Positions 29,799 through 56,400 of a stretch of 64,000 nucleotides of DNA are shown one piece after another. The notes beneath the pieces were generated by a model. That model was not told the origin of the DNA. It searched no databases and saw only the letters and a list, made by a program, of their open reading frames with translations. Made by a program: the position numbers and the translations under genes. Position 1 is the stretch's first letter. The number at the start of each line of letters is the position of its first letter. Origin of the DNA: Sedimentisphaerales bacterium (GTDB taxonomy: Bacteria > Planctomycetota > Phycisphaerae > Sedimentisphaerales > SM23-30); assembly GCA_963663805.2 (NCBI GenBank), contig CAXXMR010000003.1, forward strand, positions 192,001 to 256,000, given 5' to 3'.

Positions 29799-31632
29799 GA
29801 GCCTGTCCATTGTTTGCAACTATTTGCGGGACAAGGGATTGAGTTTGATTTTATTTGATTAGAGGTGGCGGTTTTTGCTCAAAACGATAAAATAGGTGTG
29901 TTATAATTATTTCATCACAAGTAATTATTACCCAGAAAGGGAACACACCTATGGCAAACATCTTACCCATCCAAGGCCGATTTGACAAAGATATTCCTGA
30001 TGATTTTGGCAACGCTGAATATCGTCAGGAGCGTGAGTTACTCATCGCGATCGACGAGATTATCGTTGCCGGCTGTTTGGCGAATCCGTTGATCGAATAT
30101 TTTCTTGATGTAGCTTATGCCAACAAATACATCAAAGTTTTCGGCACCGATAAATCACCAAAGCTAACCAGCAACGAACGTGCCAACGTTCATGCCAATG
30201 CTGTGCTGGCTTTACGTATGGCAATTCTTCGCAAGCGGCTGGGTTCCTCATTGCGTAAATTCTCATTGGAATTATCGCACAGTGATCTTTACAAATGGTT
30301 TTGCGGTATAAATCGTTTTTCTCTGCCTAAGGTTCCCGGTAAAAGTCATATTGGCGAATTGGAAAATGCTATTCCGCCGGAATTGGCAGAGGAAGTCGAA
30401 AGGCTTTTGTTTCAGTTTGTCCAGGATAAAGAATCAGAAATACTTTATGAGCCGCTGGCTTTTAGCCAATGTTATTTTGACTGCACTTGTATTTCCGTTA
30501 ACATTCATCATCCGGTCGATTGGGTTTTGCTCAAGGATGCCACTATCACGCTCATGAAAGCTACCGCTCGAATTCGTGAAATTGGTTTGCTTCATCGCAT
30601 GGCCAATGAACCAGCCGTTTTCATTACAAAGATGAATAAACTTTCGATGGAAATGACTTTCGCAAAACGTAAGAAAGGGGCTAAAAGGGATCGAAAGCGT
30701 ATTTTTCGAAAAATGAAGAAGTTGGTCAAACGCGTTTGTAATCATGCTAAGAGTCACTTAGAATTACTGGAAGCAAAGTGGGATACAACGAAATTGTCTC
30801 GTTCGCAAACCGAACAAATTATCAAACAGATCACCAATGTGACCGGCAAACTCAATACTGCCATCCAGAATGCTCACGAACGTATCATCGGCGAACGTCA
30901 GGTAGACAATCGGGATAAGATTTTAAGTTTGTATGAAGATGATGTCAATGTGATTGTCCGTCGAAAAGCCGGGGCCAATGTTGAGTTTGGCAATACGCTT
31001 TATTTGGCCGAACAGTCTGATGGGATAATTATCGATTGGGAATTTATTCGCGACCAGGCTCCCGCTGACAGTAAGCTGCTGAAGGAAAGTCACAAGCGGA
31101 TTGAAGATCGCCTGGATGTGAAAGTGAAACTAATGGCCGGTGATCGCGGCTTTGACAGTAAAGACAATCGGCAAATTCTCGAAAGCAATGATATTTTTAA
31201 TGCCGTTTGTCCGCGTGACCCCCATGCGCTGACTGAGCGTTTGAAGGAAAATAAATTCCGGGAAGCTCAGACTCGCCGAAGTCAAACCGAAGCGCGAATC
31301 GCAATTTTGAGTAATTGTTTTTGCGGCTCGCCGATGAAACAAAAGGGTTTTGATAATCGCCATATTCACATGGGCCTGAGCATTTTGTCACACAACCTCT
31401 GGGTGCTGGCAAGATTGAAGATCGCCCAGGGAAAAGCCCAAGAAAAAGCTGCTTAGCAACCCATTTAATCCCGTAAAATGCCTTTTGACGGGAAATGTAC
31501 GCGCCAAAATCGACAGTATGGGCCAGCTTGACCAACAAAAACAAAGAAACCCCCAAAAAAAACAAAATCAGCCCCCCAGCCAACCACGCAAAATCATCCA
31601 CCCAACAAAAAAAACGACTTCCGGACAGCCTC
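29799..31632 (+). mobile_element. Insertion sequence, DDE (IS5/IS1182-like)
   Basis: Ends GAGCCTGTCC / GGACAGCCTC; 7-bp direct repeat TATATTA at 29792-29798 and 31633-31639. Confidence 0.85.
29951..31456 (+). CDS. DDE transposase
   Basis: YFDCT, KILSLYE...KAG..VEFG, AGDRGF, R..TEARI. Confidence 0.88.
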   Translation: MANILPIQGRFDKDIPDDFGNAEYRQERELLIAIDEIIVAGCLANPLIEYFLDVAYANKYIKVFGTDKSPKLTSNERANVHANAVLALRMAILRKRLGSSLRKFSLELSHSDLYKWFCGINRFSLPKVPGKSHIGELENAIPPELAEEVERLLFQFVQDKESEILYEPLAFSQCYFDCTCISVNIHHPVDWVLLKDATITLMKATARIREIGLLHRMANEPAVFITKMNKLSMEMTFAKRKKGAKRDRKRIFRKMKKLVKRVCNHAKSHLELLEAKWDTTKLSRSQTEQIIKQITNVTGKLNTAIQNAHERIIGERQVDNRDKILSLYEDDVNVIVRRKAGANVEFGNTLYLAEQSDGIIIDWEFIRDQAPADSKLLKESHKRIEDRLDVKVKLMAGDRGFDSKDNRQILESNDIFNAVCPRDPHALTERLKENKFREAQTRRSQTEARIAILSNCFCGSPMKQKGFDNRHIHMGLSILSHNLWVLARLKIAQGKAQEKAA

Positions 31633-33232: not shown

Positions 33233-33763
33233 TTACGGATTGTGTGCCTCTTGAAATCCTTGAAAAATGTATCCAAATACTTCGGCTGCTTTTTTACAAT
33301 CCTGTTCATTGGGATGATTGGCGGCCTGTTCCAAACGGGCTTTTCGTTTTTCGTTCATGGCATGAGGGTGGCCAGGTTTTTTATCCGCGATGTCGCGCAT
33401 CCACTGGATAAGTTTGGGGTCTATTTTTCCCTGGCAGATAAAATGTCCGAGAATACTATTGGCCCGCAATAATTTCTCTGCCTTTTTCATTGAATCGAGA
33501 GCGTGTTGAGAATCAGGGCAGGCTCCCAGCGTCAAAAAGATGCCGACATTTTTACCTTTGATTTTTTGCATATAATCACGAACAACCTTGTCTGGCATAC
33601 CTTTATCTACCCAACCGCCAATTGCGATAAAATCGTACCCATCAGGCAAGGGGGCTTGTTGTACCGGATAAATCTCGCAGTTTGGTAACAAAGCTTGATG
33701 AACAGCCTCGGCGATCATTTTGGTATTTCCGGTTTTACTAGAGTAAACAACCATGCATTTCAT
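33233..33763 (-). CDS. Flavodoxin-fold protein, HmuF-like
   Basis: YSSKTGNT FMN loop, WVDKG, TLGA.PDS.HA, CQGKID, GHPH; last gene of the heme radical SAM/ECF operon. Confidence 0.78.
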   Translation of the reverse strand: MKCMVVYSSKTGNTKMIAEAVHQALLPNCEIYPVQQAPLPDGYDFIAIGGWVDKGMPDKVVRDYMQKIKGKNVGIFLTLGACPDSQHALDSMKKAEKLLRANSILGHFICQGKIDPKLIQWMRDIADKKPGHPHAMNEKRKARLEQAANHPNEQDCKKAAEVFGYIFQGFQEAHNP

Positions 33764-35235
33764 TTTGGAGCCTCTGGTTTTTCAAATTTCATAAGATCGT
33801 AAAAAAATTTCTGATATTGAGATCGATATATTGTTCTGGCAATGGTTCCGTTGTCTACCCAGAGTATTTTGTCACAGCATAATAAAACCAGCTCTATATC
33901 ATGAGTGATGATAATGACAGGGATTTTCTGGTCACAAAGTTTTTTGATTTCCGCGGCCAGCTTTCTCATTCGCATCATATCCAGGCCGCTGGTGGGTTCA
34001 TCAAGTATAATAATTTCGGGATCCAGAGCCATCAGAGCGGCAATTGCCAAACGCTGTTTTTCTCCGCCTGACAATGCCTGGGGGTGTCGATCTTTCAACT
34101 CCAGTAAGTCATATTGTTTGAGAATATCCTTAGCTGCGACATCGTCTGTATTATCATTTTGAGGGCTCAAAAGCAACTCGCCTAAAACGGTATCACTGAA
34201 CAATTGCTGCTCAGCCTGTTGAGTTACACAACCAATACGACCTATTCTGCTTTTAGGCTTGAAAACCTCACCTTTTATTGAAATCACACCCTTGTCTTCT
34301 TTTTGCAGACCGGTAATAATACGTGAAAGCGTTGTTTTACCAGCACCATTATGCCCCATAACAGCAATACAAGCGCCTGCTTCGACTGCAAAATTGACAT
34401 TATTCACTATCTGTTTATTTCGGCCTACCGAGCCATAGAGGCCTTGCACTTCAAGTGCAACATTTGGACCTGATTGTCCCGGACGATCTTCAACTTCAGG
34501 AGAGTGGTCCCATATTCGCAAGCCGGCCTTCTGTCGAAAGTTTGATGAAGCCAACTTATCAGGTGGACCGTCATAAACAAGTGCGCCATTTTTTATCACA
34601 ACCACCTGGTCAGCTAATTCACGTAAATACCAGAGGCGATGTTCTGAAATAACCATTGTTCTACCCTGTTTTTTTAATTTGCCCAACAGATGTTTAAGTT
34701 CGTGGATAGAAGAAATGTCAAGATTCGCTGTCGGCTCGTCCATAAGCAGTAAAGGCTGGTCCATGGCAAGGATAGAGGCGAGAGCAACTTTTTGCTTTTC
34801 GCCCGAAGAAAGCGTAAATAAATCACGATATCTGAGATGCTCGATTTCCACATCTGCCAATGCCAACTCAAGACGCTCCACAACAGTTTCAGGATCAAGC
34901 CCGCTATGCTCCAAACCGAACATTATCTCATCTTCAACAGTAAGCTGAAAAAACTGGGTATTGGGATTTTGGAAAACCGTACCTGCCAGCTCACTAATTT
35001 CCCATAATGATTTGCCGGCAATGTCCCGGCCGGCAATGCAGATTTGACCGTCGAGTATTCCGCCATAATGCCTCGGGGCCAAACCGTTAATGCAATGCAA
35101 TAAAGTTGACTTGCCGCTGCCGGAAGGACCGGTCACCAGAATCAGCTTGCCGGGTGATACCTGTATGTTAACATTTGCCAGGGCAGGATTATTTGGGCCG
35201 GCATATGAATAATTTAAATCAGATATTTTCAGCAT
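33760..35235 (-). CDS. ECF transporter duplicated ATPase (EcfA-A')
   Basis: Two ABC domains: GPSGSGKS/LSSGEKQ/DEPT and GHNGAGKT/LSGGEKQ/DEPT; FQNP Q-loop. Confidence 0.92.
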   Translation of the reverse strand: MLKISDLNYSYAGPNNPALANVNIQVSPGKLILVTGPSGSGKSTLLHCINGLAPRHYGGILDGQICIAGRDIAGKSLWEISELAGTVFQNPNTQFFQLTVEDEIMFGLEHSGLDPETVVERLELALADVEIEHLRYRDLFTLSSGEKQKVALASILAMDQPLLLMDEPTANLDISSIHELKHLLGKLKKQGRTMVISEHRLWYLRELADQVVVIKNGALVYDGPPDKLASSNFRQKAGLRIWDHSPEVEDRPGQSGPNVALEVQGLYGSVGRNKQIVNNVNFAVEAGACIAVMGHNGAGKTTLSRIITGLQKEDKGVISIKGEVFKPKSRIGRIGCVTQQAEQQLFSDTVLGELLLSPQNDNTDDVAAKDILKQYDLLELKDRHPQALSGGEKQRLAIAALMALDPEIIILDEPTSGLDMMRMRKLAAEIKKLCDQKIPVIIITHDIELVLLCCDKILWVDNGTIARTIYRSQYQKFFYDLMKFEKPEAPK

Positions 35236-35987
35236 TGCAATGTTATTATAAGAGAAATAGTGATGAGTGATGACATCAGGCCGGCTGTTATTATGAACGC
35301 GTAATAGTCATTTTTACGAAAACGAATGGGGCGAGGCTGTTTTGTGCAGTCCGGGCGGGCTAACCCTCGTGTTTCCGCTACAGCGGCGAGTTCATCTGCC
35401 ATTTTTAAGCTGCGTATGGTCACCAGAGCAAGATAACTCTGACCAATGAGGTGGGGATGCTTTAGTAGATCACGCTTTCGATGAACTATTCTACGCAAAC
35501 ACATGGAATCTCTAATGACCACCGATTCATTTAAAAGGGTAGGTAAAAATCGAACCGCAATGGTAAGCGGCAGGATAATAAGAACCGGTACTTTCCAGGC
35601 TTCCAGTGCCATTGCAAGATCACGCAGCTTGGTTGTAACGGCAAACCAGAGGCCGGTCACAGCCAGAACTCCTCCCCTAAAAACCATACCAATGAACATG
35701 GAGCCGGGATTATCCAGCGGCTTATTGATGATATAGTTGAACAAAAACACAAAAACGCTCCAGAGCATGACGGCCAAAAGCATTGTAATAACAAAAACCT
35801 TTATTAAACGCGAAAAATAAGCCAAAACACCAGCAGTGACAAACAGTCCCAGGCAGATAATATCATTGGCAAAGATAAGCGCCGCTGTAACTAAAATAAG
35901 GATAATCAGTTTACATCGCGGGTCAAGCCGTTCAAATACACAATCAGGATTGCGTTGTCCCAAGCGTTGTATAAATGAACGCATCAT
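35229..35987 (-). CDS. ECF transporter transmembrane T component
   Basis: LDPRCKL, RFLPTL, AAVAETRG motifs. Confidence 0.9.
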   Translation of the reverse strand: MMRSFIQRLGQRNPDCVFERLDPRCKLIILILVTAALIFANDIICLGLFVTAGVLAYFSRLIKVFVITMLLAVMLWSVFVFLFNYIINKPLDNPGSMFIGMVFRGGVLAVTGLWFAVTTKLRDLAMALEAWKVPVLIILPLTIAVRFLPTLLNESVVIRDSMCLRRIVHRKRDLLKHPHLIGQSYLALVTIRSLKMADELAAVAETRGLARPDCTKQPRPIRFRKNDYYAFIITAGLMSSLITISLIITLQC

Positions 35988-37969
35988 GCCATCACTCCTG
36001 CTTTTGATATTTTGCCGGTCAGCTTAATTCCAGCGATTCCGCCCGCTAACGCTCCAATCGCCGAGGCCGCAATTGCAAGTACAATCAGATACCAGACAAG
36101 TTGAATCTGTGTCATCTCAGTAATAAATGCATATAATTTGCTGAATGTGGTTTGAGATGTACGGTATATAATCAGTGCAGTTATCAGTGGGATAGTTTTC
36201 GAGATGCCTCCCAGCATACGAGCGGCCATATCTCCCAGTACACCTCCTATTACCAAGCCAAACCCCATGAGAATACTACCAGACAGCAGCATGGTCATCA
36301 GGGAATATACCAGGGACATTACACTCAGGGCGCCGGTTTTGGGAACTTTCTTTAGAGCAACATACATAATGATCGAAGACACAAACGCCATCAGGAACTG
36401 CATTACGCCCGGTATCATCGCAATGCCCGTCACGTGAAGCAGCATTGCAGCAACAAATTGGGTCACAAATACTAACGCACACATTACTCCCAGAACTGAA
36501 ATATCTTTTATGGAAAACCCATACATGGCATGGTTATGTTTTGAATGATGGTTTTTTTCAGAAAGGTCATTGTCAGTATTTGAGATTTCCGAAAAGACCA
36601 TCAGATTTTTTGCAGGAGCATTTTTCTCAGCCAGACCAGCATAATCCGCGGCAATATTGTAGCACCAGCTCCAGCCGTTATCAGTAAGTTCGTAGAGTGG
36701 ACCTTCTTTTTGCAGGAGGCCTTTTTCAAGATGTTTATCAAGCTTATTATTAAGGATAGTTGAGGAATCAATGGCGTCGTCATGCCATACTGTATCTGGA
36801 TTTAAAAAACCGCGCTGTAGTTGTCCTGTCACGGAACGCAGTAAGCGGGACTTCGCCGGCAGCATGAGCGAAGCCATATATCCGGCCTTTTTTCCGGCAA
36901 TCAGCATCTGGTACATGTTTTTGTCCATGGCATTCATAATGACCAAAGGTCCCAGATAGCCGCCGGCACTACATCCGATCGGCAAACAGTCTCCATCATT
37001 TAATCGTATATTGGCATAAAGATTTCTGTCTGTGGACTTGACAAAGTGGGTACACGTATCTTGACGATATCCGAGCTGGGTCAAAAACTGTCGTGCCGAT
37101 CGACATTGTTCAAGCTCGACAGGCAAATCCGGCAATGGGGCAATTTCACCTTCTTTCAGTTGTTTTTCCAGAGGAGTTCCGCTCATCGCAATCAGCGGAT
37201 ACAAAGATATACCGTCAAAATTCAAGGCGACCGCGAAATTCAAATCCTCGTGGAATTTTTGAATAGACTGGCCGGGCAGACGATAAAGTATGTCGGCGGA
37301 GATGGTCTTTATGCCAGCAGTTCTGGCGTTTTTGACCATTTGATATATTTTGTCCTTATCTGACAAACGCCCTAACTGTTGACGCATAGAAGTATCGAAT
37401 GTCTGTACACCCAGGCTTAGGCGATTTACTCCTGACTGTACCATTGCCTGCAGCTTTTCGTCAGACAGGTCATGAATCGTAGATTCGACAGTTATTTCCG
37501 CTGATTCATCAAGGCAAAGTACATCTCGGGCGGTATCAAGCAGATCAGCCATTGCCTCAGCAGGCAAGATCGAAGGAGTACCGCCTCCCAAATAAAGAGC
37601 TTCAAAACCACCCTGAAGAACATAACCAGAGTCTTGATATTTCTGTAGTTCCCTGATAACTAATTTCGCGTACTCAGCAGCCCGGACTGAAGTACCCGCT
37701 CTACGCTGGAAATTGCAAAACGAGCACAAAGTTCCACAAAACGGAATATGTACATAAGCCGTTCTACGCTGGCCTTCGTCAACACCTTTTTCAACGATAT
37801 TTTTCCAGATATCTTTTTCATCGCCCCGGGGCGCTATACAGCTCCAGCCATAAGTATCCATATGACTGCGCAATCTGGATCCGAAGGGCAAATCAGCACG
37901 ATTAATCACCTGAATCCGCCGTTCCACATTTAAGCCTGAAGCAAAATCTATATTCGTTCTGGAATTCAT
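35984..37969 (-). CDS. HemN/ChuW(HutW)-like radical SAM protein fused to an ECF S component
   Basis: YVHIPFCGTLCSFC, YLGGGTPS, RLSLGVQTF; His-rich linker; C-terminal about 175 aa multi-TM domain (KVPKTGA) resembling MptD-type S components. Confidence 0.82.
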   Translation of the reverse strand: MNSRTNIDFASGLNVERRIQVINRADLPFGSRLRSHMDTYGWSCIAPRGDEKDIWKNIVEKGVDEGQRRTAYVHIPFCGTLCSFCNFQRRAGTSVRAAEYAKLVIRELQKYQDSGYVLQGGFEALYLGGGTPSILPAEAMADLLDTARDVLCLDESAEITVESTIHDLSDEKLQAMVQSGVNRLSLGVQTFDTSMRQQLGRLSDKDKIYQMVKNARTAGIKTISADILYRLPGQSIQKFHEDLNFAVALNFDGISLYPLIAMSGTPLEKQLKEGEIAPLPDLPVELEQCRSARQFLTQLGYRQDTCTHFVKSTDRNLYANIRLNDGDCLPIGCSAGGYLGPLVIMNAMDKNMYQMLIAGKKAGYMASLMLPAKSRLLRSVTGQLQRGFLNPDTVWHDDAIDSSTILNNKLDKHLEKGLLQKEGPLYELTDNGWSWCYNIAADYAGLAEKNAPAKNLMVFSEISNTDNDLSEKNHHSKHNHAMYGFSIKDISVLGVMCALVFVTQFVAAMLLHVTGIAMIPGVMQFLMAFVSSIIMYVALKKVPKTGALSVMSLVYSLMTMLLSGSILMGFGLVIGGVLGDMAARMLGGISKTIPLITALIIYRTSQTTFSKLYAFITEMTQIQLVWYLIVLAIAASAIGALAGGIAGIKLTGKISKAGVMA

Positions 37970-38135: not shown

Positions 38136-39113
38136 TCAATAATTATCCAGATGACCTTCCAGATTAACAACATGGAGGTAATCCGCTATTGGAATATCAA
38201 AACATTTCAGTTGTTGGTGAGTAATAGAAATATCACGACTTAGCGTTTGCATTTTTTTTGACAATACAACGTCACCGCTTCCACTTAAAATGATAATTCT
38301 ATCCTCAACGTTCGGGCTTCTCCGTTTTAGACGAAAGGGTATCCCTGCGCCATAGCTGACATGTCCGCTACCGCACAAGACCACCGCGAGAGGATCAGGT
38401 TGATTGCTATTGTTGATCGCCTGAAACAGTTTCTCCGCCATCATTTCGTCGCGACACACCTGGGCTGTGAACATTCTATCGAGCATCTCCGGTATATCTT
38501 TCACATGAGCCATCACCATCATGGTGTTATTCAGGTGTTGGCGATATTTCTCATTAGCAGTGTCTATCTGGTCAGGCAGCTCATTTCTCTCCTGGCCAGA
38601 GAGAGTCTGTATTCCCCAGCGCCCCACCTTCCGGATAATCTCCTGCCGGGCATTCAGACCAACAATTGTGCCGCCGGCATGATGCACTGCTTTTACAATC
38701 TTCTGATAGTCCTGATAGTTACCCCAGCGTGAAGGCCAATCAATCAACTCGCTCAACTGCTCAAAGGTAATCTCATGGCAATTGTAGCGGTCGAGGGCGG
38801 GTTGATTGAAGGCCTCCACCTGCTCAAGCCCCAGAACCAGAGGCCGGTCTCTGGCAAGCAAATCCGCGATGATCTTGTGTTGGAGTTCATGGTGGCGGGT
38901 GAGCGTGTGATGTTCTCCCAGATACACAACATCCACCTCAGCCAGGTCCATGAGCATTTGCTTGTAAGCCACCGGTTCTCCACGATAAGTGTCAACCCAA
39001 AAGCCGCAGCGGTTGACGGTTCTCCCTGTCATCTGACATCCTCCGGAAAACACTAAGATTGCAGTCAAGGCCCAAAGTGCTGATTTTATTGTTGGCTTAA
39101 TTTTCATATTCAT
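38136..39113 (-). CDS. ChaN/PhuW-family heme-associated lipoprotein
   Basis: Lipobox FSGGC; DVVYLGEHH, LGLE, AQ..RD..MA, GSGH..YG.GIP. Confidence 0.85.
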   Translation of the reverse strand: MNMKIKPTIKSALWALTAILVFSGGCQMTGRTVNRCGFWVDTYRGEPVAYKQMLMDLAEVDVVYLGEHHTLTRHHELQHKIIADLLARDRPLVLGLEQVEAFNQPALDRYNCHEITFEQLSELIDWPSRWGNYQDYQKIVKAVHHAGGTIVGLNARQEIIRKVGRWGIQTLSGQERNELPDQIDTANEKYRQHLNNTMMVMAHVKDIPEMLDRMFTAQVCRDEMMAEKLFQAINNSNQPDPLAVVLCGSGHVSYGAGIPFRLKRRSPNVEDRIIILSGSGDVVLSKKMQTLSRDISITHQQLKCFDIPIADYLHVVNLEGHLDNY

Positions 39114-39130
39114 GATATTCCATTATCCAT

Positions 39131-39946
39131 TTAATAGCCCGGTCCCCACAAAGTACGGTCTTCCTGCGAATCCGGCAGACTTAAATGAGTCCAGAACATA
39201 TGTCCTGAAGTTTTTATGTTGACCGGGGCGGCCACTTCATCGGCCTCATAACCTTTGACTCTGCCGATATGACTGTCAACAAACATAATATTCATGGCCT
39301 GATCATGATAGAAGCCGCTGGTATATCTGTGATGGCCCTGCCAATCGGGATTGTACTGAAGCAAATTCGGATTATATATGTCATAAACTTGGCCATAATA
39401 ACTCGTCTCAATCATGAACATGCAATCTGAGGCCATTCTAATATTGTCGAGTTTATATTTACCGCCCGGCCCGAAACGTAATTCCGGACTGGCCAATGTC
39501 CAACCGCTGCCGGCGCCGGCTTTTTTGTAATAACCATTTAACGCGTAACTGGTGTATTTTTGGTTATGAGGTGAGAAACCCATGGGGTACGGATCTTTAT
39601 CTGAAGGACAAAACCATAAATCTGCAGGTTCCTCCCAGGTTGCTTCTTTTGCGCTGTCTCCGCCAATATAAGGCAATAAGGCCCATATCCACGGCCTGGA
39701 GCCAATGTTGTTGGCCATAATACGATACGCAATTGGTATATCACCTTTGTTGTCCATAACATAAGTGCAAAACGCCAGCGATATCTGCTTCATTTGCGAA
39801 GCACAAACTACCGCCCGAGCCTGGGTACGCGCTTTTCCCAACGCCGGTAATAAAATCGATACCATCAGAGCGATTATCGCCACCACAACCAGTAATTCCA
39901 CTAACGTGAAACCACTGAACTTTTGTTTGTTTGTACAAAACATCAA
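39131..39946 (-). CDS. Prepilin-type / H-X9-D(S) protein, heme cassette
   Basis: [26 protein letters not shown]. Confidence 0.88.
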   Translation of the reverse strand: MMFCTNKQKFSGFTLVELLVVVAIIALMVSILLPALGKARTQARAVVCASQMKQISLAFCTYVMDNKGDIPIAYRIMANNIGSRPWIWALLPYIGGDSAKEATWEEPADLWFCPSDKDPYPMGFSPHNQKYTSYALNGYYKKAGAGSGWTLASPELRFGPGGKYKLDNIRMASDCMFMIETSYYGQVYDIYNPNLLQYNPDWQGHHRYTSGFYHDQAMNIMFVDSHIGRVKGYEADEVAAPVNIKTSGHMFWTHLSLPDSQEDRTLWGPGY

Positions 39947-39967
39947 AGCTGCTTCTCCTGCATACTG

Positions 39968-41458
39968 TTAATTGACCGGAATAAAAATATAATTACTCAC
40001 GTCAAGCCAGTTTTCCGCCAATTCCAGGATATCTAAAATATCTATCAGGCCATTCCCGTCACAGTCACCGTCAAGCCCGTCACCTTCCATATTCCAGTTC
40101 TTAGTCATAACAGCCCAATCAGCCAGATCAACAGAACCATCCATATCAATATCAGCACTATCACGTAATGGGCCTGCGGGCAAAACCGCATCCAAAGCGG
40201 TTGTAACCGAAAAAGCGTCTATGTACGGCTCGTCACCAGAAACTATAAATTCGACGGCAATATATTCAGGATTATGAGCCAGACTGAAAACTTTGGTACT
40301 TCTGTACCAGTTGTAATCCTCCTGACCATTACCAATTAGCTGATCCACAAAATTGCTTGGCGTTACATCTGTTGCACCATCAATATCAACCGTAACTGTT
40401 CCTCTGTCATACCAGTCGTATTGGACCATGACTTTCAGGCTTCCTGTTTGGTTGCCTGTGGGAATATTGGCTGTAAGAGTATGGCTTGCATAAGGATTGC
40501 CGCGATAGATTCCGCCGTAAACCCCGTCCACCCAGTTCGGCTGATCACCGGCCACAACACTGTCAACATAAGGATGCCAGGTGAGGAATGGATTGGTAAT
40601 TACCATATCTCCTATCAAGGTTTCTTCTTCCCACATCATGTTTGGATCACCATAAGCATTGTCCACATTCCCATCCGGCTCATGAGACGGCAGGAATCTG
40701 CCCGAACCTGCTGACATAAGCCAATGCTGATGAGTATAACCTGGATCATTACTCCAGTCCGGAATCCAGGCATTATCGAAACCACTTTTGCACTCGGTGA
40801 AAATCAGTACCGGCGAAGTGGTATGCGGCATGGGGTTAGCACTGTCGTCAGCCCGGCTGGACCAGAATCCGGGATGCATGTTGATCTCAGGGTTGTCGGC
40901 ATTGACATCTTCCCGGCCGGTAACCGCCAGCCCCAGATTCTCCACCCCTTGTTCACCATTGGTCGTCTCAAACAATATCCACTGGTTCACCAAAGTGGTA
41001 ATATCCCAATAGCAGACACCATCCTTAAAAACCATTAAGCTGGCATAGGAGTCCAGAATGTGATTTTCGTTGACATAAAAATCGCGGGGCGTGACCGAAT
41101 AATTGAGTATATTGGTTACATCCATATCAACGTTGTGAACTGAGACCGTAACCGGGCTGGTGGTGGTCATTCCCATCGAACCTTCCGCTCCCGAGGCCAT
41201 TCGCAACCAAGCCCTTTCTACAGGAGTATCAGGCAGAGATGCGGAATCAAACTTCAGGAAAAGTATGGTTTCATAGCTCTCCAACCCATTTCCCATATCT
41301 ATTAACGCATGCGCGTTTGAAGTAAGCAGATAGGTCCGATCAGAAAAAACCATTGTTGACATAGGCGTATAAAAATCACTTTGAACGTCAATCAGCGTGC
41401 TTGCCAGGCAATTGCCGGCTAACAATATCGCTGTCATAAAAAAATATTTTTTTGTCAT
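39968..41458 (-). CDS. Secreted DNRLRE-like domain protein with C-terminal dockerin-like repeats
   Basis: Start at MTKKY; LKFD...A.L...DIT..VN.W; tail ADIDMDGSVDLAD / GDCDGNGLIDILD. Confidence 0.72.
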   Translation of the reverse strand: MTKKYFFMTAILLAGNCLASTLIDVQSDFYTPMSTMVFSDRTYLLTSNAHALIDMGNGLESYETILFLKFDSASLPDTPVERAWLRMASGAEGSMGMTTTSPVTVSVHNVDMDVTNILNYSVTPRDFYVNENHILDSYASLMVFKDGVCYWDITTLVNQWILFETTNGEQGVENLGLAVTGREDVNADNPEINMHPGFWSSRADDSANPMPHTTSPVLIFTECKSGFDNAWIPDWSNDPGYTHQHWLMSAGSGRFLPSHEPDGNVDNAYGDPNMMWEEETLIGDMVITNPFLTWHPYVDSVVAGDQPNWVDGVYGGIYRGNPYASHTLTANIPTGNQTGSLKVMVQYDWYDRGTVTVDIDGATDVTPSNFVDQLIGNGQEDYNWYRSTKVFSLAHNPEYIAVEFIVSGDEPYIDAFSVTTALDAVLPAGPLRDSADIDMDGSVDLADWAVMTKNWNMEGDGLDGDCDGNGLIDILDILELAENWLDVSNYIFIPVN

Positions 41459-41483
41459 TTTGCGGGTTCCCTTTTTAAAAATC

Positions 41484-41519
41484 ACTGCCGGCCTCGATAG
41501 ATGGCTTGAGGCCGGCAGT
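41484..41519 (-). terminator. 12-bp stem-loop after the PEP-CTERM gene (leaky terminator or stabiliser)
   Basis: ACTGCCGGCCTC...GAGGCCGGCAGT, followed by GATTTTT on the minus strand. Confidence 0.6.
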
Positions 41520-41545
41520 ACGGAGATATTGGCCCCTGAAGAGCC

Positions 41546-42268
41546 TTATTTCCTTTTCCTGAGACTCACCAGGCTGCCCAGACAAAGAAGCAGCATAGTG
41601 GCTGGTTCAGGAACGAAGGTATCGGATATATACGGAACTGAAGCCCCGGGAAATTGGCCATTATCAATGTCCCAGCTGCCAAAAGCGCCGCCGCCGGAAA
41701 AGATAATACCGTTGTTTACGCCGCCCACCCAACTATTATAAACATCGGTGATATCCACACTGCAAAGACCGGCGGATGTGATGCTTAGAGTTGCAAAGGG
41801 AGTGGCATTGATATGAGCGTCTTTAACCTGCTCCGGGGTGCTGGTCAGGTCACCGATATTTTCCACATCAATCGAGGCGGCGTAGAGATCGACAACCAGC
41901 GGACTTGCCACACTTGGAGCACTGATCCCCATCATACTGTTAACATAATCAATCTGTTCCAAAACCAGAAATGCCTGATCGACCGTTTCGGTCGGGCTGT
42001 CAAATTTTACCCAGCCATAACCCCAATATCCGGGATTGCCCATAACACCACTCAGAGGCTGGGCCAGGAAATAATCCTTATTATTGACTTCACCCGCCCG
42101 GTTGTCATAAAAGCCCAGTCCCATTTCACCGCCCATACTCGCCCCCATGAAGGTATAGCCGGTAATGGTACAGTTGTCATTGATTACAGCCGCTTTTACA
42201 TCAGCACAGAGGGTCAGTCCTACAAAAGCAACTACTAACATAAGTGTTATTTTTTTGATATTTTTCAT
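41546..42268 (-). CDS. Met-rich PEP-CTERM protein sharing its domain with 39968..41458
   Basis: KFDS..V..A.L, SMMG..SP, DV.NI, G.C..DIT...N.W; VPEP-TM-RKRK. Confidence 0.78.
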   Translation of the reverse strand: MKNIKKITLMLVVAFVGLTLCADVKAAVINDNCTITGYTFMGASMGGEMGLGFYDNRAGEVNNKDYFLAQPLSGVMGNPGYWGYGWVKFDSPTETVDQAFLVLEQIDYVNSMMGISAPSVASPLVVDLYAASIDVENIGDLTSTPEQVKDAHINATPFATLSITSAGLCSVDITDVYNSWVGGVNNGIIFSGGGAFGSWDIDNGQFPGASVPYISDTFVPEPATMLLLCLGSLVSLRKRK

Positions 42269-42383: not shown

Positions 42384-42427
42384 AAAAAAAGGAGCAATAG
42401 CAGGCTTTAAACACCTTCTATTGCTCC
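42384..42427 (-). terminator. Intrinsic terminator between DUF2023 and the heme cassette
   Basis: Minus strand GGAGCAATAG...CTATTGCTCC-TTTTTTT. Confidence 0.75.
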
Positions 42428-42524
42428 CTGGCTGGCTTATCGATGCTTGCTAGGTTGCAAGTTGTCTGGATTGTAATTTTTATAATACTATTAGATTGCT
42501 AAACAGTTAACTTTTTTCTGTCCT

Positions 42525-42884
42525 TTATTGAGCCGCGGAAAATAATTTTATTGTTTGCGGCGGGCTGTCATGCTTTTTGATTTCAAGATAGCGGCTGCAC
42601 TGTATTAATCGATCATAACCCAACATCGTTCCCAGTATGAAATCTTCTTCCGGAGTATAATCGTTCAAACAAGGCTTTCCTATCGTTCGGATGACTTCGA
42701 CACATGCCTCGGCACCGAAAAATACGTTTATGTTTCCATTTTTCAAGTGATATATCTCGTAGTCGATATTCATTTTGTCCAGCTTTTCCCGGACGCGACC
42801 TTCATAACGCAGCGAAGTGGTATGCAGGATCAGGTTGCGCAATCCCTTGCGGTATTCATAAATGTGATGATAGAAAACTTTCAT
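42525..42884 (-). CDS. DUF2023 family protein
   Basis: MKVFYHHIYEYRKG.R.L.L.T...TPEEDFILG.MLGY...QC.RY; coupled to the flavodoxin gene. Confidence 0.85.
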   Translation of the reverse strand: MKVFYHHIYEYRKGLRNLILHTTSLRYEGRVREKLDKMNIDYEIYHLKNGNINVFFGAEACVEVIRTIGKPCLNDYTPEEDFILGTMLGYDRLIQCSRYLEIKKHDSPPQTIKLFSAAQ

Positions 42885-43387
42885 AAGCCCAATTCATCCT
42901 GTAATTGTTTTACCCATTTTTTGATTCTGTCGGCAGTCTGGTCCGGCTGATTGTCGTCGTCGAGCGCCAGTCCCAGGAAATGACTATCTTTCGCCGCAAG
43001 GGAGCTGGTAAAATTGTATCCATCGGTGGGCCAGTTTCCCAGCAGCACGGCCCCGGCTTTTTCCACGGCCAGGGCGATAATACCAACAGCATCAATAAAT
43101 GTGTCGGCATATCCTTCCTGGTCACCGGTACCGAATACCGCAACTTTTTTTCCGGAAATATCTATTTCGTCAAAAGATTCTTTGCCGTACCAGTCGTCCT
43201 GCAGCTCACCCAAGCCCCAGGTGGAAGAACCCAGGACAAGCATGTCATAGTTCTGAAAATCGGAAACTTCTGACCCGGAAATATCATTCAAGCTCACCTC
43301 CCCCAGAGAGTCCAGTTCTGCCTTGATCTGCTCTGCCGCTGCCGAGGTGTTCCCCGTTGAACTACCGTAATAAATACCAATTTTCAT
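42881..43387 (-). CDS. fldA: Long-chain flavodoxin
   Basis: GSSTGNT, STWGLGELQDDW, FGTGDQ..Y...F, GLALDDDNQ. Confidence 0.92.
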   Translation of the reverse strand: MKIGIYYGSSTGNTSAAAEQIKAELDSLGEVSLNDISGSEVSDFQNYDMLVLGSSTWGLGELQDDWYGKESFDEIDISGKKVAVFGTGDQEGYADTFIDAVGIIALAVEKAGAVLLGNWPTDGYNFTSSLAAKDSHFLGLALDDDNQPDQTADRIKKWVKQLQDELGL

Positions 43388-43452: not shown

Positions 43453-43650
43453 TTATTTATTCATAATAAGTTTGCCATGGCGAGTGATCCTGATCCGATA
43501 CGTTTCACCGGCATGACAAATATGAATTTCGTTATGGTTGCCAAAAAGCTGAGGAGTGTTATACACTTTAGGCTTGGCGTGACCAACATCCGCACTGGAG
43601 ACGGATTCTTTTCTTGAGCTGTAATCAGCGTGTAAATTTTGTTCCTGCAT
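43453..43650 (-). CDS. hemP: Hemin uptake protein HemP
   Basis: LFG...EI.I.H.GE.YRIRITR.GKLIMNK signature. Confidence 0.88.
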   Translation of the reverse strand: MQEQNLHADYSSRKESVSSADVGHAKPKVYNTPQLFGNHNEIHICHAGETYRIRITRHGKLIMNK

Positions 43651-44628: not shown

Positions 44629-45582
44629 TTACCATGTCGGATTGCAATTTATATCTGTCGGATTATTGCAGCTTAAAAAATGTTGGGCCAGATCAGCCAA
44701 ATCGAGTATATCCACTTTACAGTCATGATTAGTGTCGGCTTGCAGTCCCATCCCGGCCTGCCATACACCATGACAGGTCGAAGGTATGGTCGCGGGATCG
44801 TCAAACCAACTCTCGTCAAAGGCCGCGTCCTCAGGGGCATTGCAGGCCTGCCATTGGTCCGCCATAATCGCGAAGTCCGCAAGGTTGACATAAGCGTCCT
44901 TATTGACATCTTCCGCCAAGGCCCAGCCTAACAAAGCGACATCATTACGATCTGTCGGCATATCGGTATAGGCACTCCGAAACGAATCGAAAAATATGCC
45001 GGAATTTGAAACGGTGACTTCACGAAAAACACGAATAAAATGAACGTCTTCGCTAAACTTCCCATCAAAATCAAAAGTCGCATCATAGAAATATCCACCC
45101 GTGCCGGGCACCTGATTCAGTTCCCCTTCGATGACGCCAATTTGGGTAAAAACCGCACCGTCGGTACTGGCCCACACAGAAGCCTGGGCCAGGGGGCCGC
45201 AGTACATGCGAACGACAACGTCGTTAGCGTCAATGTCCCGAAGACCGTGATCGAATTCAACGATAATTTCCTGTTCGGCATGAAGCGGCGACCCGGTGCG
45301 CCAGCCGGCGACATAATCCTTGTCGCCCTGATCCCAGTCCCAGGCGTACATATTGCCGTTCTGATCGGAATCGGAAGGCCCCAGCACCAGCCAGGTCGTG
45401 GCGGGAGTCTCAGAAACCATCGGCAGCGAACCGGATCCGCTACAGCCTCCGTTCACAAAGCTGGCAATTTTACTGGTATGGCTGATAACCCGATCGGCCC
45501 AGTTTACACCATTAACATATTCCCCCTGACTTACCTGATTCCAGGCAAATATAATCAATAACAGACATATCATCTTTTTCAT
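44629..45582 (-). CDS. Secreted dockerin-like protein, close paralog of 46421..47071
   Basis: NWAD.V, GNM.AWD, DYVAGWR, RMYCG, QVPG, FDFDG and FFDSF are all shared; two dockerin-like repeats. Confidence 0.82.
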   Translation of the reverse strand: MKKMICLLLIIFAWNQVSQGEYVNGVNWADRVISHTSKIASFVNGGCSGSGSLPMVSETPATTWLVLGPSDSDQNGNMYAWDWDQGDKDYVAGWRTGSPLHAEQEIIVEFDHGLRDIDANDVVVRMYCGPLAQASVWASTDGAVFTQIGVIEGELNQVPGTGGYFYDATFDFDGKFSEDVHFIRVFREVTVSNSGIFFDSFRSAYTDMPTDRNDVALLGWALAEDVNKDAYVNLADFAIMADQWQACNAPEDAAFDESWFDDPATIPSTCHGVWQAGMGLQADTNHDCKVDILDLADLAQHFLSCNNPTDINCNPTW

Positions 45583-46420: not shown

Positions 46421-47071
46421 CTATTTTTTCTTTCTCAGACAAATGCCGCCCAGCCCCAGAAGAATCATAGTCATCGGCTCGGGAACCGAAGCGAACGAGT
46501 CAAAGAACATGCCGGTACCGCTGCCGGTTGTTTCCCGGTGGACTTTGACATAGCTAACGTCGCTTGATGTTAAGCCATCAAAATCAAACGCGGCATCATA
46601 GAGGAAACCGGGTTTGCCGGGAACCTGCATCGACTGCCCAATTATGGTGCCAACCTGGACCCAGTCGTTATTGTTAGTTTCGCTTACATAAACAGTCGCA
46701 CTGGCTTTGGAGCCGCAGTACATTCTTATTACCAGATCATCACCGGCGATATCCTGCAGAGGTTCGTTGAAACCTACTACTAGTTCCTGATCGACATTAC
46801 CACCGCGCCAACCCGCAACATAATCCAGGTCACCTCCAACAAAATCCCAGGCGTGCATATTTCCGGTCTGATCGGCATCCGAAGATCCCAGGGGCCAAAA
46901 TTCAGTGGCAGGAGTCATTAGTGTTCCGCCATAACTCTGAATCGCGCTGGTGTAGCTGACTACACTATCGGCCCAGTTCTGGCCGCCAACCAAAGCAGCC
47001 TGACTGACAGTTGCCAATGCACAGACCATTATCATTCCCAATACCTTATTCAAACTTTTTACTGATTTCAT
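46421..47071 (-). CDS. PEP-CTERM surface protein, iron cassette
   Basis: Signal peptide; VPEP-TM-RKKK. Confidence 0.85.
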   Translation of the reverse strand: MKSVKSLNKVLGMIMVCALATVSQAALVGGQNWADSVVSYTSAIQSYGGTLMTPATEFWPLGSSDADQTGNMHAWDFVGGDLDYVAGWRGGNVDQELVVGFNEPLQDIAGDDLVIRMYCGSKASATVYVSETNNNDWVQVGTIIGQSMQVPGKPGFLYDAAFDFDGLTSSDVSYVKVHRETTGSGTGMFFDSFASVPEPMTMILLGLGGICLRKKK

Positions 47072-47232
47072 TTTGATTGCTCCATTTCATTTTTTAATAT
47101 GTTTATTTTCAAGGTTCAAACTCCAATGATGCGTTATCAACTAGCTGGTATCCATTTTCCATAGCCTCCTTTCCGGCTCAGGTTGGCAACCCGTAAAAAG
47201 TAAGACGCGCCTAACTAAGCGGGTAAAAAAAA

Positions 47233-49735: not shown

Positions 49736-49749
49736 TTAGGCTAGCCTTA
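49736..49749. promoter_or_regulatory. Candidate DtxR-family operator at the feoB start
   Basis: TTAGGCTAGCCTTA with perfect core AGGCTAGCCT; similar to 50564-50581. Confidence 0.6.
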
Positions 49750-50558: not shown

Positions 50559-50588
50559 AATATAATAAGGCTGGCCTTATTTTGTCAA
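50559..50588 (-). promoter_or_regulatory. Promoter of the dtxR-feoB operon with palindromic operator in the spacer
   Basis: Minus strand TTGACA - 18 nt - TATATT; 8-2-8 palindrome AATAAGGC-TG-GCCTTATT at 50564-50581. Confidence 0.75.
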
Positions 50589-53480: not shown

Positions 53481-56400
53481 ATGAGAAATTGGAATTGGTT
53501 GTTAATTTTGGTGTTAGCAAATTCAGTTGCTTTTGGTTCAGATTTATGGGTTACGCACTATCCTGATTCTGACAGTACTCAGATTTGGATAGATGCTGCT
53601 GATTTTGGTTCTAAAACGGCAGATTTTCAGGAAGATACTGCCGCGAGCGACACATTAAGCAGACATGCTTATTATTTTCCCAATTATGATGGTCCGTCAA
53701 CATTTCAGCCGTGGTGGGCGGAATACACAATAGCAGCGGTCGATGTGCCGGGTGTTACGTTGGATGGCAAGACCTGGTATTTCTGGGCTCGGGCCTCTCA
53801 GCCGATTTCCGGAGCGGAAGAATCGGATGTGGTATTTGTCAAAGGTGATCCGGGTGATGGCACGGGTGGTAGTTGGTATGACGATGCTTTGGCAACGGTT
53901 GATGTCGCTACGGACAGGATATTGAATGATCTGGCGTCCGTCGGCGGGGTTGGTGCCTGGGTCTGGTGTAGTACGGAGACCGAGTCTGTTGTTTCAAAAG
54001 AGTTCAATCTGGACGAAAATAATGAGATTGTTTTCCGGATTTCAGAGCGAGAAAGCGGTTTGGCAAATGCGCGTATCGATGCAATGATGTGGACAGATGA
54101 TCCGAATTTTGTGCCTGCTGATTCTGATTACCTGGGCACCTCATTATATGGTATCAGGCAGGTATATGATGGTCGTGACGCGGGGGAAATACCCCATATT
54201 TTTTGGACTGCACAAGACGGCTATGGTCAGGATGCCATTATAAATGGTGAAGGTCCTGGTAGTGACAAGCCGATTTACTACCCGGTAGAAGGCGGGGGCG
54301 GATACGATTTTAGCTATACTCTCGATGCTTTGGATCACAACAGTGACAGCGGTTCAATTGTCGATTTGGGCCAAGAGTTTTTGCCGGACTATGATGATGA
54401 TTTCAGTGTTGAGGTATGGTTCCGGGCGGATGGTTGTCCGGCGGGGAATCAGCAGCAGGTGCTCTGGAGCACACAAAGCCTGGCGGGTAACGGTATGCGT
54501 TTGTATATCTATGACTGGAGTGGAGCCAGTGGTAAATTTGGGATAACTTTGGAGGCTCGTGATAATACGGGCAGTAAAGTGCAGTGGGCCACATCTGATG
54601 AAAATGGGGGTGACAAATATGATTATGGCCAATGGATGCAGGTGGTGGCGGTTTACGATGCTGGTGCGGCGGGGTCGGGTATTCCGAATATGAAGATATA
54701 TACCAACGGCGAGCTGAAGCGAGATGTGGATCATACCTCGGCAGTTCCGGCGGATACGGATTTTGTTGATACCGTTCGGGGAGCGTCTTCGGTTCTGGGG
54801 GCGAGAGGTGTTCCTAATGACATTCGATTTGCCGCAAATAATGACCGCGAGTATTTCGATGGCGGTATCGCTCTGGTGCAAATATTTGAAAAAGCCGCAT
54901 CTTCTTCAGAAATATTAGCTTCTTATAATGAGAATAAGTTGTGGATTATTGATGAGGCTCCTTATGATCCCGCGGTTGATTTGCCATTTGATGGTTCTAA
55001 TGGAGTTGAAATACAGTCTGGTCTGATTTTTAAGCTTGACGCAAAAAGTGCCGGCGATCTGCCTCATTTGGCTTGTGTTAATGAGCAAACGGGGTCAACC
55101 GGTGGCGTGGAAAGTATGGGCCCTTCGGCGTCTTTGTATTTGCCAGAGTATTACGAAACTGTAAATGGTGCCGGCTATGAATTAGATTACACAACTGATT
55201 CCGGCGGTTATCTAGATCTTGGTAATGTTCTTCCCGATTACGACGAACCTTTTACTGTTGAAATGTGGGTAAGGCCTGACGGGATGACCTCGGATTGCAT
55301 GCAACAGGCTCTTTTTAGTTCTCAGGGTTTGTCCGCTAATGGCGCGCGTTTGGCTATTGCTGACTGGGACCTTGACGGCAAATATAGCATTGTATACGAG
55401 ATGCGTGACAATGTCGGCTCTAAGGTCAACTGGAATGCCTGGGATGAGAACAAGGACGAGTATAATGTAAGTCAATTTTACGATGTTGGAGAATGGATTC
55501 AGATCGTGGCGGTGTATACCCCGGATGCTACCGGGTTAGGCTGGCCTAATATCAGGATATACACCAACGGTGAGCTCAAACTGAATAAAGATTGTGTCAG
55601 TACTTTGCCAACCGATTATGATTTTGTTGAGTTTGGAGGGCAGGGGCAAATAGGATCGCGTGGCAAACAAAGCGACACAAATACAAGTTCTACGAACAGA
55701 CATTATTTCAATGGCGGCTTTGCCTTGATTCGCATGTATGAAAAAGTTCTAAGTGGTGCTGAGGTCCAGAGCAACTATGATTACAATAAAAATGAAATTA
55801 TTGTTAATCTGCCTTATGATCCCTCCGTTGACCCGGTATATACTCCACCGGTAATATTGCCAAAGGTGAGTTTTTCGCTTGTGCAGGAATATGACGGCAG
55901 GTATCCGGGAGTTTTGAGTGATGTGAACTGGGACCCAACCGTCGAAAGCGTTACCGGTGATATTTATAGTATTGGTCCTCTACCTAGATGGCCTCAGCAT
56001 AGCGTAGATGCTTATTACTTCAGCAACGCGGTTAATGACAGTGTTGAGGATCCCAATAGCTCCGGCGGCGGAATGGAATTGGGTGACGCATTTGTGCCCG
56101 ATTACAACGATGATTTTACCGTTGAGATATGGGTTTCCCCTGATGAAATTCCAGCAGATAATCACCAACAGGTACTTTGGGGTACTCAAGGGCTTTCTGG
56201 CAACGGCATGAGATTGTATGTATATGATTGGAGTGGAACTTGGGAAGATTGGTATGGCGTTGCTTTTGAGGCCAGGGATAACTCTGGTGAAAAGGCCAAA
56301 TATACTGTTTCGGCGTCTTCTGTTACTCAGCAGCATTCCGAGGGCTGGAAGCAGTTTGTCATTGCTTATGATGGAGCAACAAATAAAAAGCCTGTGATGA

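Follow-up and report, generated by a model that had tools for sequence, protein, structure and literature searches.

Met-Met homologs of the hemophore HmuY bind heme best when it is reduced (PMC12106395). The CBM96 module binds alginate in a groove between a Lys10-Thr13 wall and an opposite Ser63-66 wall, with Arg36 essential for alginate (PMC9971899). HemP-family proteins act after transcription starts, and HmuP-responsive elements (HPREs) lie upstream of heme TonB receptor genes (PMC9131926); a heme energy-coupling factor (ECF) transporter, LhaSTA (PMC7299338), and an exported, proposed heme dechelatase, IhtB (PMC12094164), are also known. Here, we analysed a 64,000-nt stretch of DNA from a Sedimentisphaerales bacterium (Planctomycetota; Phycisphaerae; positions 192,001 to 256,000 of contig CAXXMR010000003.1, assembly GCA_963663805.2), hereafter the window, in which two minus-strand genes, PEP240 (41546..42268) and DOCK496 (39968..41458), encode related Met-rich proteins within a heme-utilisation locus. 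We consider it likely, from residue conservation, fold mapping and gene neighbourhood, that both are surface hemophores which hold ferrous heme by two Mets; the proposal of a preliminary description of this DNA, that heme is captured at the surface through Met ligands, thereby appears well supported. In the literature covered (titles and abstract openings, no supplements, few subscription papers), we found no heme-binding DNRLRE, CBM96 or PEP-CTERM protein nor any planctomycete hemophore; one HPRE survey (Amarelle 2019) might list planctomycete elements.

PEP240 comprises a signal peptide, a domain of about residues 27-216 and a PEP-CTERM tail (Pfam, above cut-off). Its exported, surface location is predicted from the signal peptide, read from the sequence, from this tail and from the two exosortases of the genome (4.75 Mb, 88% complete). 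DOCK496, whose start codon is probably the ATG at 41458 (496 residues) rather than the GTG at 41485, has a signal peptide, a first domain (~19-223) related to that of PEP240, a second beta-sandwich (~234-424) and a dockerin-like tail. The two proteins align with 30% identity over 100 residues (E 3e-8), with SMMG of PEP240 opposite SMGM of DOCK496, which confirms the earlier observation of a Met-rich loop at the same position in both. This loop is indeed conserved across the family, but a better conserved N-terminal Met (YxxM) had been overlooked, and the conserved residues are M41 and M112/M113 in PEP240 and M33 and M95 in DOCK496. M41 (TGYTFMG) and M113 (GAM/GSM) are invariant in 23/23 sequences of the first PEP240 alignment, either Met of the MM at 112-113 possibly being the conserved one, and M33 (FYTPMS) and M95 (GSMG) are nearly invariant in the DOCK family. 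For a broader count, 70 domains scoring at least 60 bits were retained after dereplication at 70% identity, and 5 without coverage were dropped. Using a profile built from Met-rich sequences, and accepting any Met within 11 residues as the second one, Met1 is present in 58 of the remaining 65 domains, a Met in the second loop in 59 and both in 56, for a Met background of 2.7%; two of the 65 have His at the second site. Among the 15 covered of 17 DNRLRE-like controls, whose site 1 is poorly aligned, none has Met1, one has a loop-2 Met and none has both. Two distant relatives (P0083 and P0089) lack the first Met and have His in place of the second, and three DNRLRE-like neighbours of family genes (L025:10777-11682, L030:1801-3789 and L032:2155-3417) display HGHG in loop 1 together with MM(S/C)xPM or MCHPM in loop 2.

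The predicted structures place both Met-bearing domains close to CBM96. The PEP240 model (predicted local distance difference test, pLDDT, 75.6) matches 8WAB (Z 12.6, root mean square deviation 3.3, 160 aligned) and 7VBO (Z 11.9), and the next match after the CBM96 structures reaches only Z 7.3; residues 19-223 of the DOCK496 model (pLDDT 66) match CBM96 structures at Z 12.5 and 12.4, followed by 8.9. CBM96 was also the top match of an Atlas search (0.93), and a profile that includes canonical-like DNRLRE members (A3) matched 7VBO by sequence (E 3.5e-7). HmuY and other known hemophores are absent among the listed fold matches, the best of which is CBM96, and no HmuY Pfam match was obtained at E 0.05. 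Identity to CBM96/DNRLRE structures is 12-18%, and the DNRLRE family NF033679 scores 25.2 bits on DOCK496 (cut-off 34) and does not match PEP240; the DNRLRE-like assignment of the preliminary description therefore holds at the level of structure, but falls under the NCBIfam cut-off in sequence. Likewise, the fold of the DOCK496 tail resembles dockerins (Z 6-7.6; 2ozn, Z 7.6), but its Pfam score (PF00404, 14.5 bits) is under the cut-off of 22.9. The second beta-sandwich of DOCK496 (window ~40187-40759, minus strand) has only middling structural matches, no Atlas match above 0.76 and no named family. PEP-CTERM proteins with this domain on its own are also encoded next to the Met family (L027:8016-8894, L069:8626-9462, L035:10594-11679 and L036:10818-11795), mostly with GGM in place of the YGGxY of DOCK496.

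The residue names of PMC9971899 fit the 7VBO chain at an offset of 16, which relates the Mets to the alginate groove. By profile alignment, the two conserved Mets map to opposite groove walls, Met1 to Asn9, adjoining the Lys10-Thr13 wall, and Met2 to Ser66 in the Ser63-66 wall, while Arg36 aligns to Gly83 and Lys10 to Gly42. With one Met on each wall and the key Arg lost, the CBM96 glycan site thus appears rebuilt as a bis-Met heme clamp requires. The same comparison bears on whether PEP240 and DOCK496 could be ordinary CBM96-like glycan-binding or surface-layer proteins with structural Mets. Among solved structures, the nearest in fold are modules that bind alginate or chondroitin, and the genome encodes ~75 PEP-CTERM-like and 68 prepilin-like proteins. 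However, the domains are acidic (4 K+R vs 21 D+E) and lack the cationic groove residues (Lys10, 22, 25, 27, 31 and Arg36) that serve polyanion binding, both Mets stand in loops and are absent together from the controls, and no carbohydrate gene recurs among the family loci, the single cases being a GH113 gene in L070 and an esterase gene in L021. We regard a glycan-binding role as very improbable.

The Met family is rare. Besides the two window proteins, a 90% database contained 22 PEP240 homologs and 14 DOCK496 homologs, and when 1.84 billion representatives were searched with a profile, 28 matched at E ≤1e-30 and 64 at 1e-10 (best 150 listed). Of 301 genomes of the class, 31 have a match at 1e-12, strong and full-length in six (G000, G012, G534, G476, G477 and G639); the weaker matches inspected are other DNRLRE-like PEP-CTERM proteins. 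Across a phylum sample of 401 genomes, with seven candidates scored in each, the family was seen in the window's genome only, plus one partial weak match, and no further member was found in the window's genome. In a tree of 40 domains, the Met type is spread over several branches, apart from the canonical controls. A separate DNRLRE PEP-CTERM subfamily displays a G-H-D/N motif and a Tyr near loop 1 (L075:3504-4220, L082:3712-4440, L083:9737-10501 and L073:9570-10388); in L075 and L082 its gene is followed by a pilin gene and hutX, and it is possibly a second, His/Tyr heme-binding branch.

We then compared gene neighbourhoods. Merging of duplicates (L016/17/21, L018/19, L023/40, L024/37 and L026/39) left 21 family loci, window included, which encode ChaN in nine cases, a HutW-like enzyme in five, a CbiX-like chelatase in seven (four of these identified with a local profile built from proteins that Pfam confirmed) and a CobN-like protein in one. 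At least one of these four tetrapyrrole markers occurs in 17/21 loci, and hemP in 13/21. Sixteen of the 25 weak-match genomes supplied 17 control loci; the four markers are found in 0/17 of these, hutX in two (L075 and L082) and hemP in one (L087). Conversely, HutW-like genes of at least 288 bits are present in 6/301 genomes, five of which carry the Met family. The proteins are thus encoded in heme-utilisation loci, and the neighbourhood check suggested in the preliminary description, for which homologs mostly in carbohydrate loci would have spoken otherwise, came out in favour of its proposal.

Since CbiX-like (7/21) and CobN-like (1/21) neighbours belong to B12/siroheme chelatase families, the ligand might be another metallo-tetrapyrrole (corrinoid, siroheme, coproheme or F430) rather than heme b. 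ECF transporters also carry B12, and the radical S-adenosylmethionine (SAM) enzyme of the window, for which HutW is the best NCBIfam match, scores 286.6 bits on TIGR04107, under the cut-off of 400. Yet the HutW-like enzyme of L069 passes this cut-off (449 vs 400 bits), hemP, the HPRE-like element and DtxR point to iron, neither a cobalamin riboswitch nor any Rfam match was found in 29000-53000, and most of the six family CbiX-like proteins read for export signals have one, like IhtB (PMC12094164). On balance, another tetrapyrrole as ligand is distinctly unlikely.

The region upstream of PEP240 suggests how the genes are controlled. The gap before PEP240 contains, on the minus strand at 42384-42454, a conserved HPRE-like motif (42428..42454) and, behind it, a hairpin with a T run (42384..42427), predicted to be an intrinsic terminator, whose end lies 115 nt before the start of PEP240; motif and hairpin together are single-copy in the genome. 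The stem shows both-side changes in 7/17 predicted pairs across 10 sequences, and the motif, of the GC(C/A)AGC type, matches the chuR HPRE of C. violaceum (GCAAGC...AGCCAGCCAG) as printed in PMC9131926. Scans for promoters and terminators stayed at the level of shuffled sequence (43 vs 36.6 and 25 vs 19.4) and missed the hairpin. The element is found in 9/21 family loci, in six of them directly before the Met gene. hemP itself is present in 32/301 genomes, including all six family genomes, and we fetched 26 other hemP loci, one of which (L128) is in G476, where the Met gene lies on another short contig. These loci hold a pilin gene in 23 cases, an HPRE-like element in 12, a PEP216-family gene in six, a tetrapyrrole gene in three, ChaN in none and the Met family in 0/26. 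For the last reason hemP and the HPRE were rejected as heme-specific evidence, and HemP here is therefore taken as an iron switch for pilin/PEP-CTERM cassettes, in which the partners of the pilin vary (PepSY-TM, FTR1, porins and other PEP-CTERM proteins in the Phycisphaerae loci L119-L144). The Met family is the cargo that travels with heme genes within such HemP-switched cassettes.

Palindromes resembling DtxR-family operators are present upstream of dtxR (50566..50579, minus strand, in the promoter of the DtxR/MntR-FeoA gene), feoB (49736-49749) and PEP216 (47201-47214), with a fourth inside a LamG gene (55536-55549), and similar palindromes are found in dtxR promoters of relatives. The operator pattern is only suggestive because it was fitted afterwards and matched 7 times, both strands counted (at 4 sites, each within the window), vs 1-6 times in five shuffles.

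This organisation raises another explanation, in which the ligand of the Met pair is a free soft metal ion (Fe2+, Cu+ or Co2+) and the proteins are one more cargo of a general iron-starvation pilin/PEP-CTERM cassette feeding FeoB. It would account for the pilin following hemP in 23/26 other loci, where the PEP-CTERM cargo varies and feoB is often adjacent, and for feoAB lying in the same gene run in the window and in L035. It fits less well with the Met family tracking tetrapyrrole genes in 17/21 loci, vs 3/26 loci with other cargo, with five of the six top HutW-like genomes carrying the family, and with the mature domain of the PEP240 family, which has no invariant His or Cys besides the two Mets. 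We judge free-metal binding to be unlikely. The least probable of the explanations weighed here is that PEP240 and DOCK496 are surface redox proteins holding heme permanently, for electron transfer or ferric reduction, instead of carrying it: flavodoxins are co-encoded and L025 has an upstream gene resembling di-heme cytochrome c peroxidase, but no redox partner is conserved across loci, and a position behind the HPRE-like element, beside importers and heme-degrading enzymes, fits uptake.

A number of observations weigh against a hemophore role. The Met loops are modelled with low confidence (pLDDT 57 at residues 41-50 of PEP240, and below 50 at residues 1-43 and 95-99 of DOCK496), and a search of the PDB with the Met-type profile (A4) gave no relevant chain. 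The construction of the counting profile given above, and the 0/26 other hemP loci with the Met family, count on the same side. Four family loci have none of the four markers, namely L026 (hemP only), L035 (feoAB), L036 and L038 (gene at the contig end). The sixth HutW-like genome, G439, has a HutW-ECF module and no Met protein within 20 kb. Locus counts such as 17/21 are not independent, because the loci are related and three of the six family genomes belong to one order. ChaN is encoded in 43/301 genomes, and three non-family chaN loci examined have neither a Met protein nor hemP; being thus frequent and present without the Met protein, ChaN alone was rejected as heme-specific evidence. The distant locus L036 has an ECF module and two TonB receptor genes near the Met gene; its tail type suggests an origin in Desulfobacterota. 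Finally, in C. violaceum, a siderophore receptor is likewise under HPRE control (PMC9131926).

The preliminary description further proposed that the pair replaces the usual TonB heme receptor. The operon of the window has no heme receptor gene, and the single TonB receptor of this genome, on another contig beside a YfiR-like gene, is nearly at the TOL_0244 cut-off. No TonB receptor was found in G639 and G477, while G012, G023 and G534 have 2, 5 and 1, respectively, none of them, by position, in a Met locus; 71 of 122 downstream open reading frames scanned in the 26 other hemP loci also gave none. Because the window's genome, G639 and G477 fit but L036 has receptors, replacement is plausible in these planctomycetes and is not general across the family. 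A wider picture, which we put forward tentatively and consider rather doubtful, is that planctomycetes (Phycisphaerae and others) have a TonB-free heme uptake with HemP-switched, CBM96-fold catchers and a DUF1559 pilin carrying heme or the loaded protein. In this same doubtful picture, the pilin and PEP-CTERM cassette would serve uptake in general, with exchangeable cargo that determines what is taken up, and heme ligands would have arisen more than once on the DNRLRE scaffold, as a Met pair or as the His/Tyr type beside hutX in L075 and L082.

Taking PEP240 and DOCK496 as hemophores, the following sequence of events may be envisaged. Iron shortage would lift a DtxR-type repressor, and HemP would permit read-through of the terminator before PEP240, presumably by antitermination. 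The proteins would be exported, PEP240 via the exosortase route, after which ferrous heme would be gripped in PEP240, and in the first domain of DOCK496, by two Mets as axial ligands, M41 and M112/113 (M33 and M95 in DOCK496), before being handed to the predicted heme import and breakdown proteins. Heme would then cross the envelope, possibly with involvement of the co-encoded pilin, and ChaN and the ECF transporter would deliver it to the HutW-like enzyme; at other loci, an exported CbiX-like or a CobN/HmuS-like chelatase might strip the iron.

PEP240 and DOCK496 belong to a minus-strand run of 21 genes from 50534 down to 32006. It starts with DtxR/MntR-FeoA, feoB and DUF4405, followed by a cassette of PEP216, a pilin, DOCK317 and a weakly FmdE-like gene, a 99-aa open reading frame and the hemP/hmuP regulator gene (43453..43650). 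Next come the flavodoxin FldA and DUF2023 genes (42525..43387), between hemP and the HPRE-like element, and, after a 256-nt gap, PEP240 and DOCK496. Behind these lie a DUF1559 prepilin gene (39131..39946), of a distinct subfamily (HHRxTSGFxH) that accompanies the Met family in eight loci, and a gene for a ChaN-family protein with a lipoprotein-like signal (38136..39113; PF04187, E 1e-53). The run continues with a fusion of the HutW/ChuW-like radical SAM enzyme with a Trep_Strep ECF S component (35984..37969), the ECF T component and double ATPase (33760..35987), a Flavodoxin_3 protein (33233..33763), a MarR regulator and a methyltransferase. The Flavodoxin_3 protein, termed HmuF-like in the preliminary description and with a BilS-type flavodoxin, under cut-off, as its best NCBIfam match, is the probable radical SAM partner. 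All genes named in the preliminary description are thus present, on the minus strand and in the order it gave, with hemP upstream (PF10636, E 3e-13); the range it assigned to the PEP-CTERM/dockerin pair, 39131-42268, contains that pair but also holds the pilin. The radical SAM-S component fusion is also seen in L018, L020 and L068, the genes being separate in L069 and G439, and a conserved, unnamed membrane protein of ~200 residues with a C-x6-7-C-x3-K-x-MGVFD motif is encoded in the interval between pilin and Met gene in L027 (7379-7990), L069 (7714-8499) and L070 (10475-11107).

PEP216 (46421-47071) and DOCK317 (44629-45582), both on the minus strand, form a second PEP-CTERM/dockerin pair, unrelated to the Met family and with its own pilin and FmdE-like gene. 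The PEP216 profile has no PDB match; the family follows hemP and an HPRE-like element in 6/26 other hemP loci, all six beside feoB, and is a candidate iron-binding surface protein. The iron locus is within a region whose GC skew is negative, and at the end of the locus lies an open reading frame that is transposase-like, judged by appearance alone (29951-31456, plus strand).

If the proposed role is correct, PEP240 and DOCK496 would add to the known hemophores a new fold, one derived from a carbohydrate-binding module, and would provide a ligand for PEP-CTERM/DNRLRE proteins, almost all of which are annotated as hypothetical. It would also extend HemP-HPRE control from Proteobacteria to Planctomycetota, and would give a cheap, colour-based handle on what dozens of DUF1559 pilin and PEP-CTERM cassettes import, and by what means, in cells with few or no TonB receptors.

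Compared with CBM96/DNRLRE proteins (7VBO, 8WAB, NF033679 and PF24517), the Met family has the same predicted beta-sandwich (Z 11.9-12.6) and distant sequence homology, but the Lys/Arg groove is replaced by Gly and aromatics, two Mets stand on the groove walls and no lyase is attached. With the ChuW/HutW enzymes of anaerobic heme degradation and the heme ECF transporter LhaSTA, the locus shares the best match to HutW and an ECF module, and differs in the fusion of the enzyme to the S component. Like the Proteobacterial systems controlled by HemP/HmuP through an HPRE (E. meliloti shmR and C. violaceum chuR), it has hemP and an HPRE-matching motif, which here is fused to a terminator hairpin and heads PEP-CTERM/pilin cassettes; directly upstream of PEP240, the element stands where Proteobacteria put the heme TonB receptor. 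The likeness in presumed function is to the Met-Met HmuY hemophores of T. forsythia (Tfo) and B. fragilis (BfrA), encoded in hmuYRSTUV operons, which are likewise surface proteins with a Met pair in anaerobes. In L021, CobN, MotA/ExbB and DUF2149 genes stand behind the Met pair, the same CobN, ExbB-like and DUF2149 partners as in Bacteroidota hmuS-U-V (PMC12583661 and PMC12094164), and the Met proteins occupy the place of hmuY and hmuR. Unlike HmuY, however, the Met proteins have a tail of the PEP-CTERM or dockerin-like type in place of a lipid anchor, and no HmuR-like receptor is encoded in the locus.

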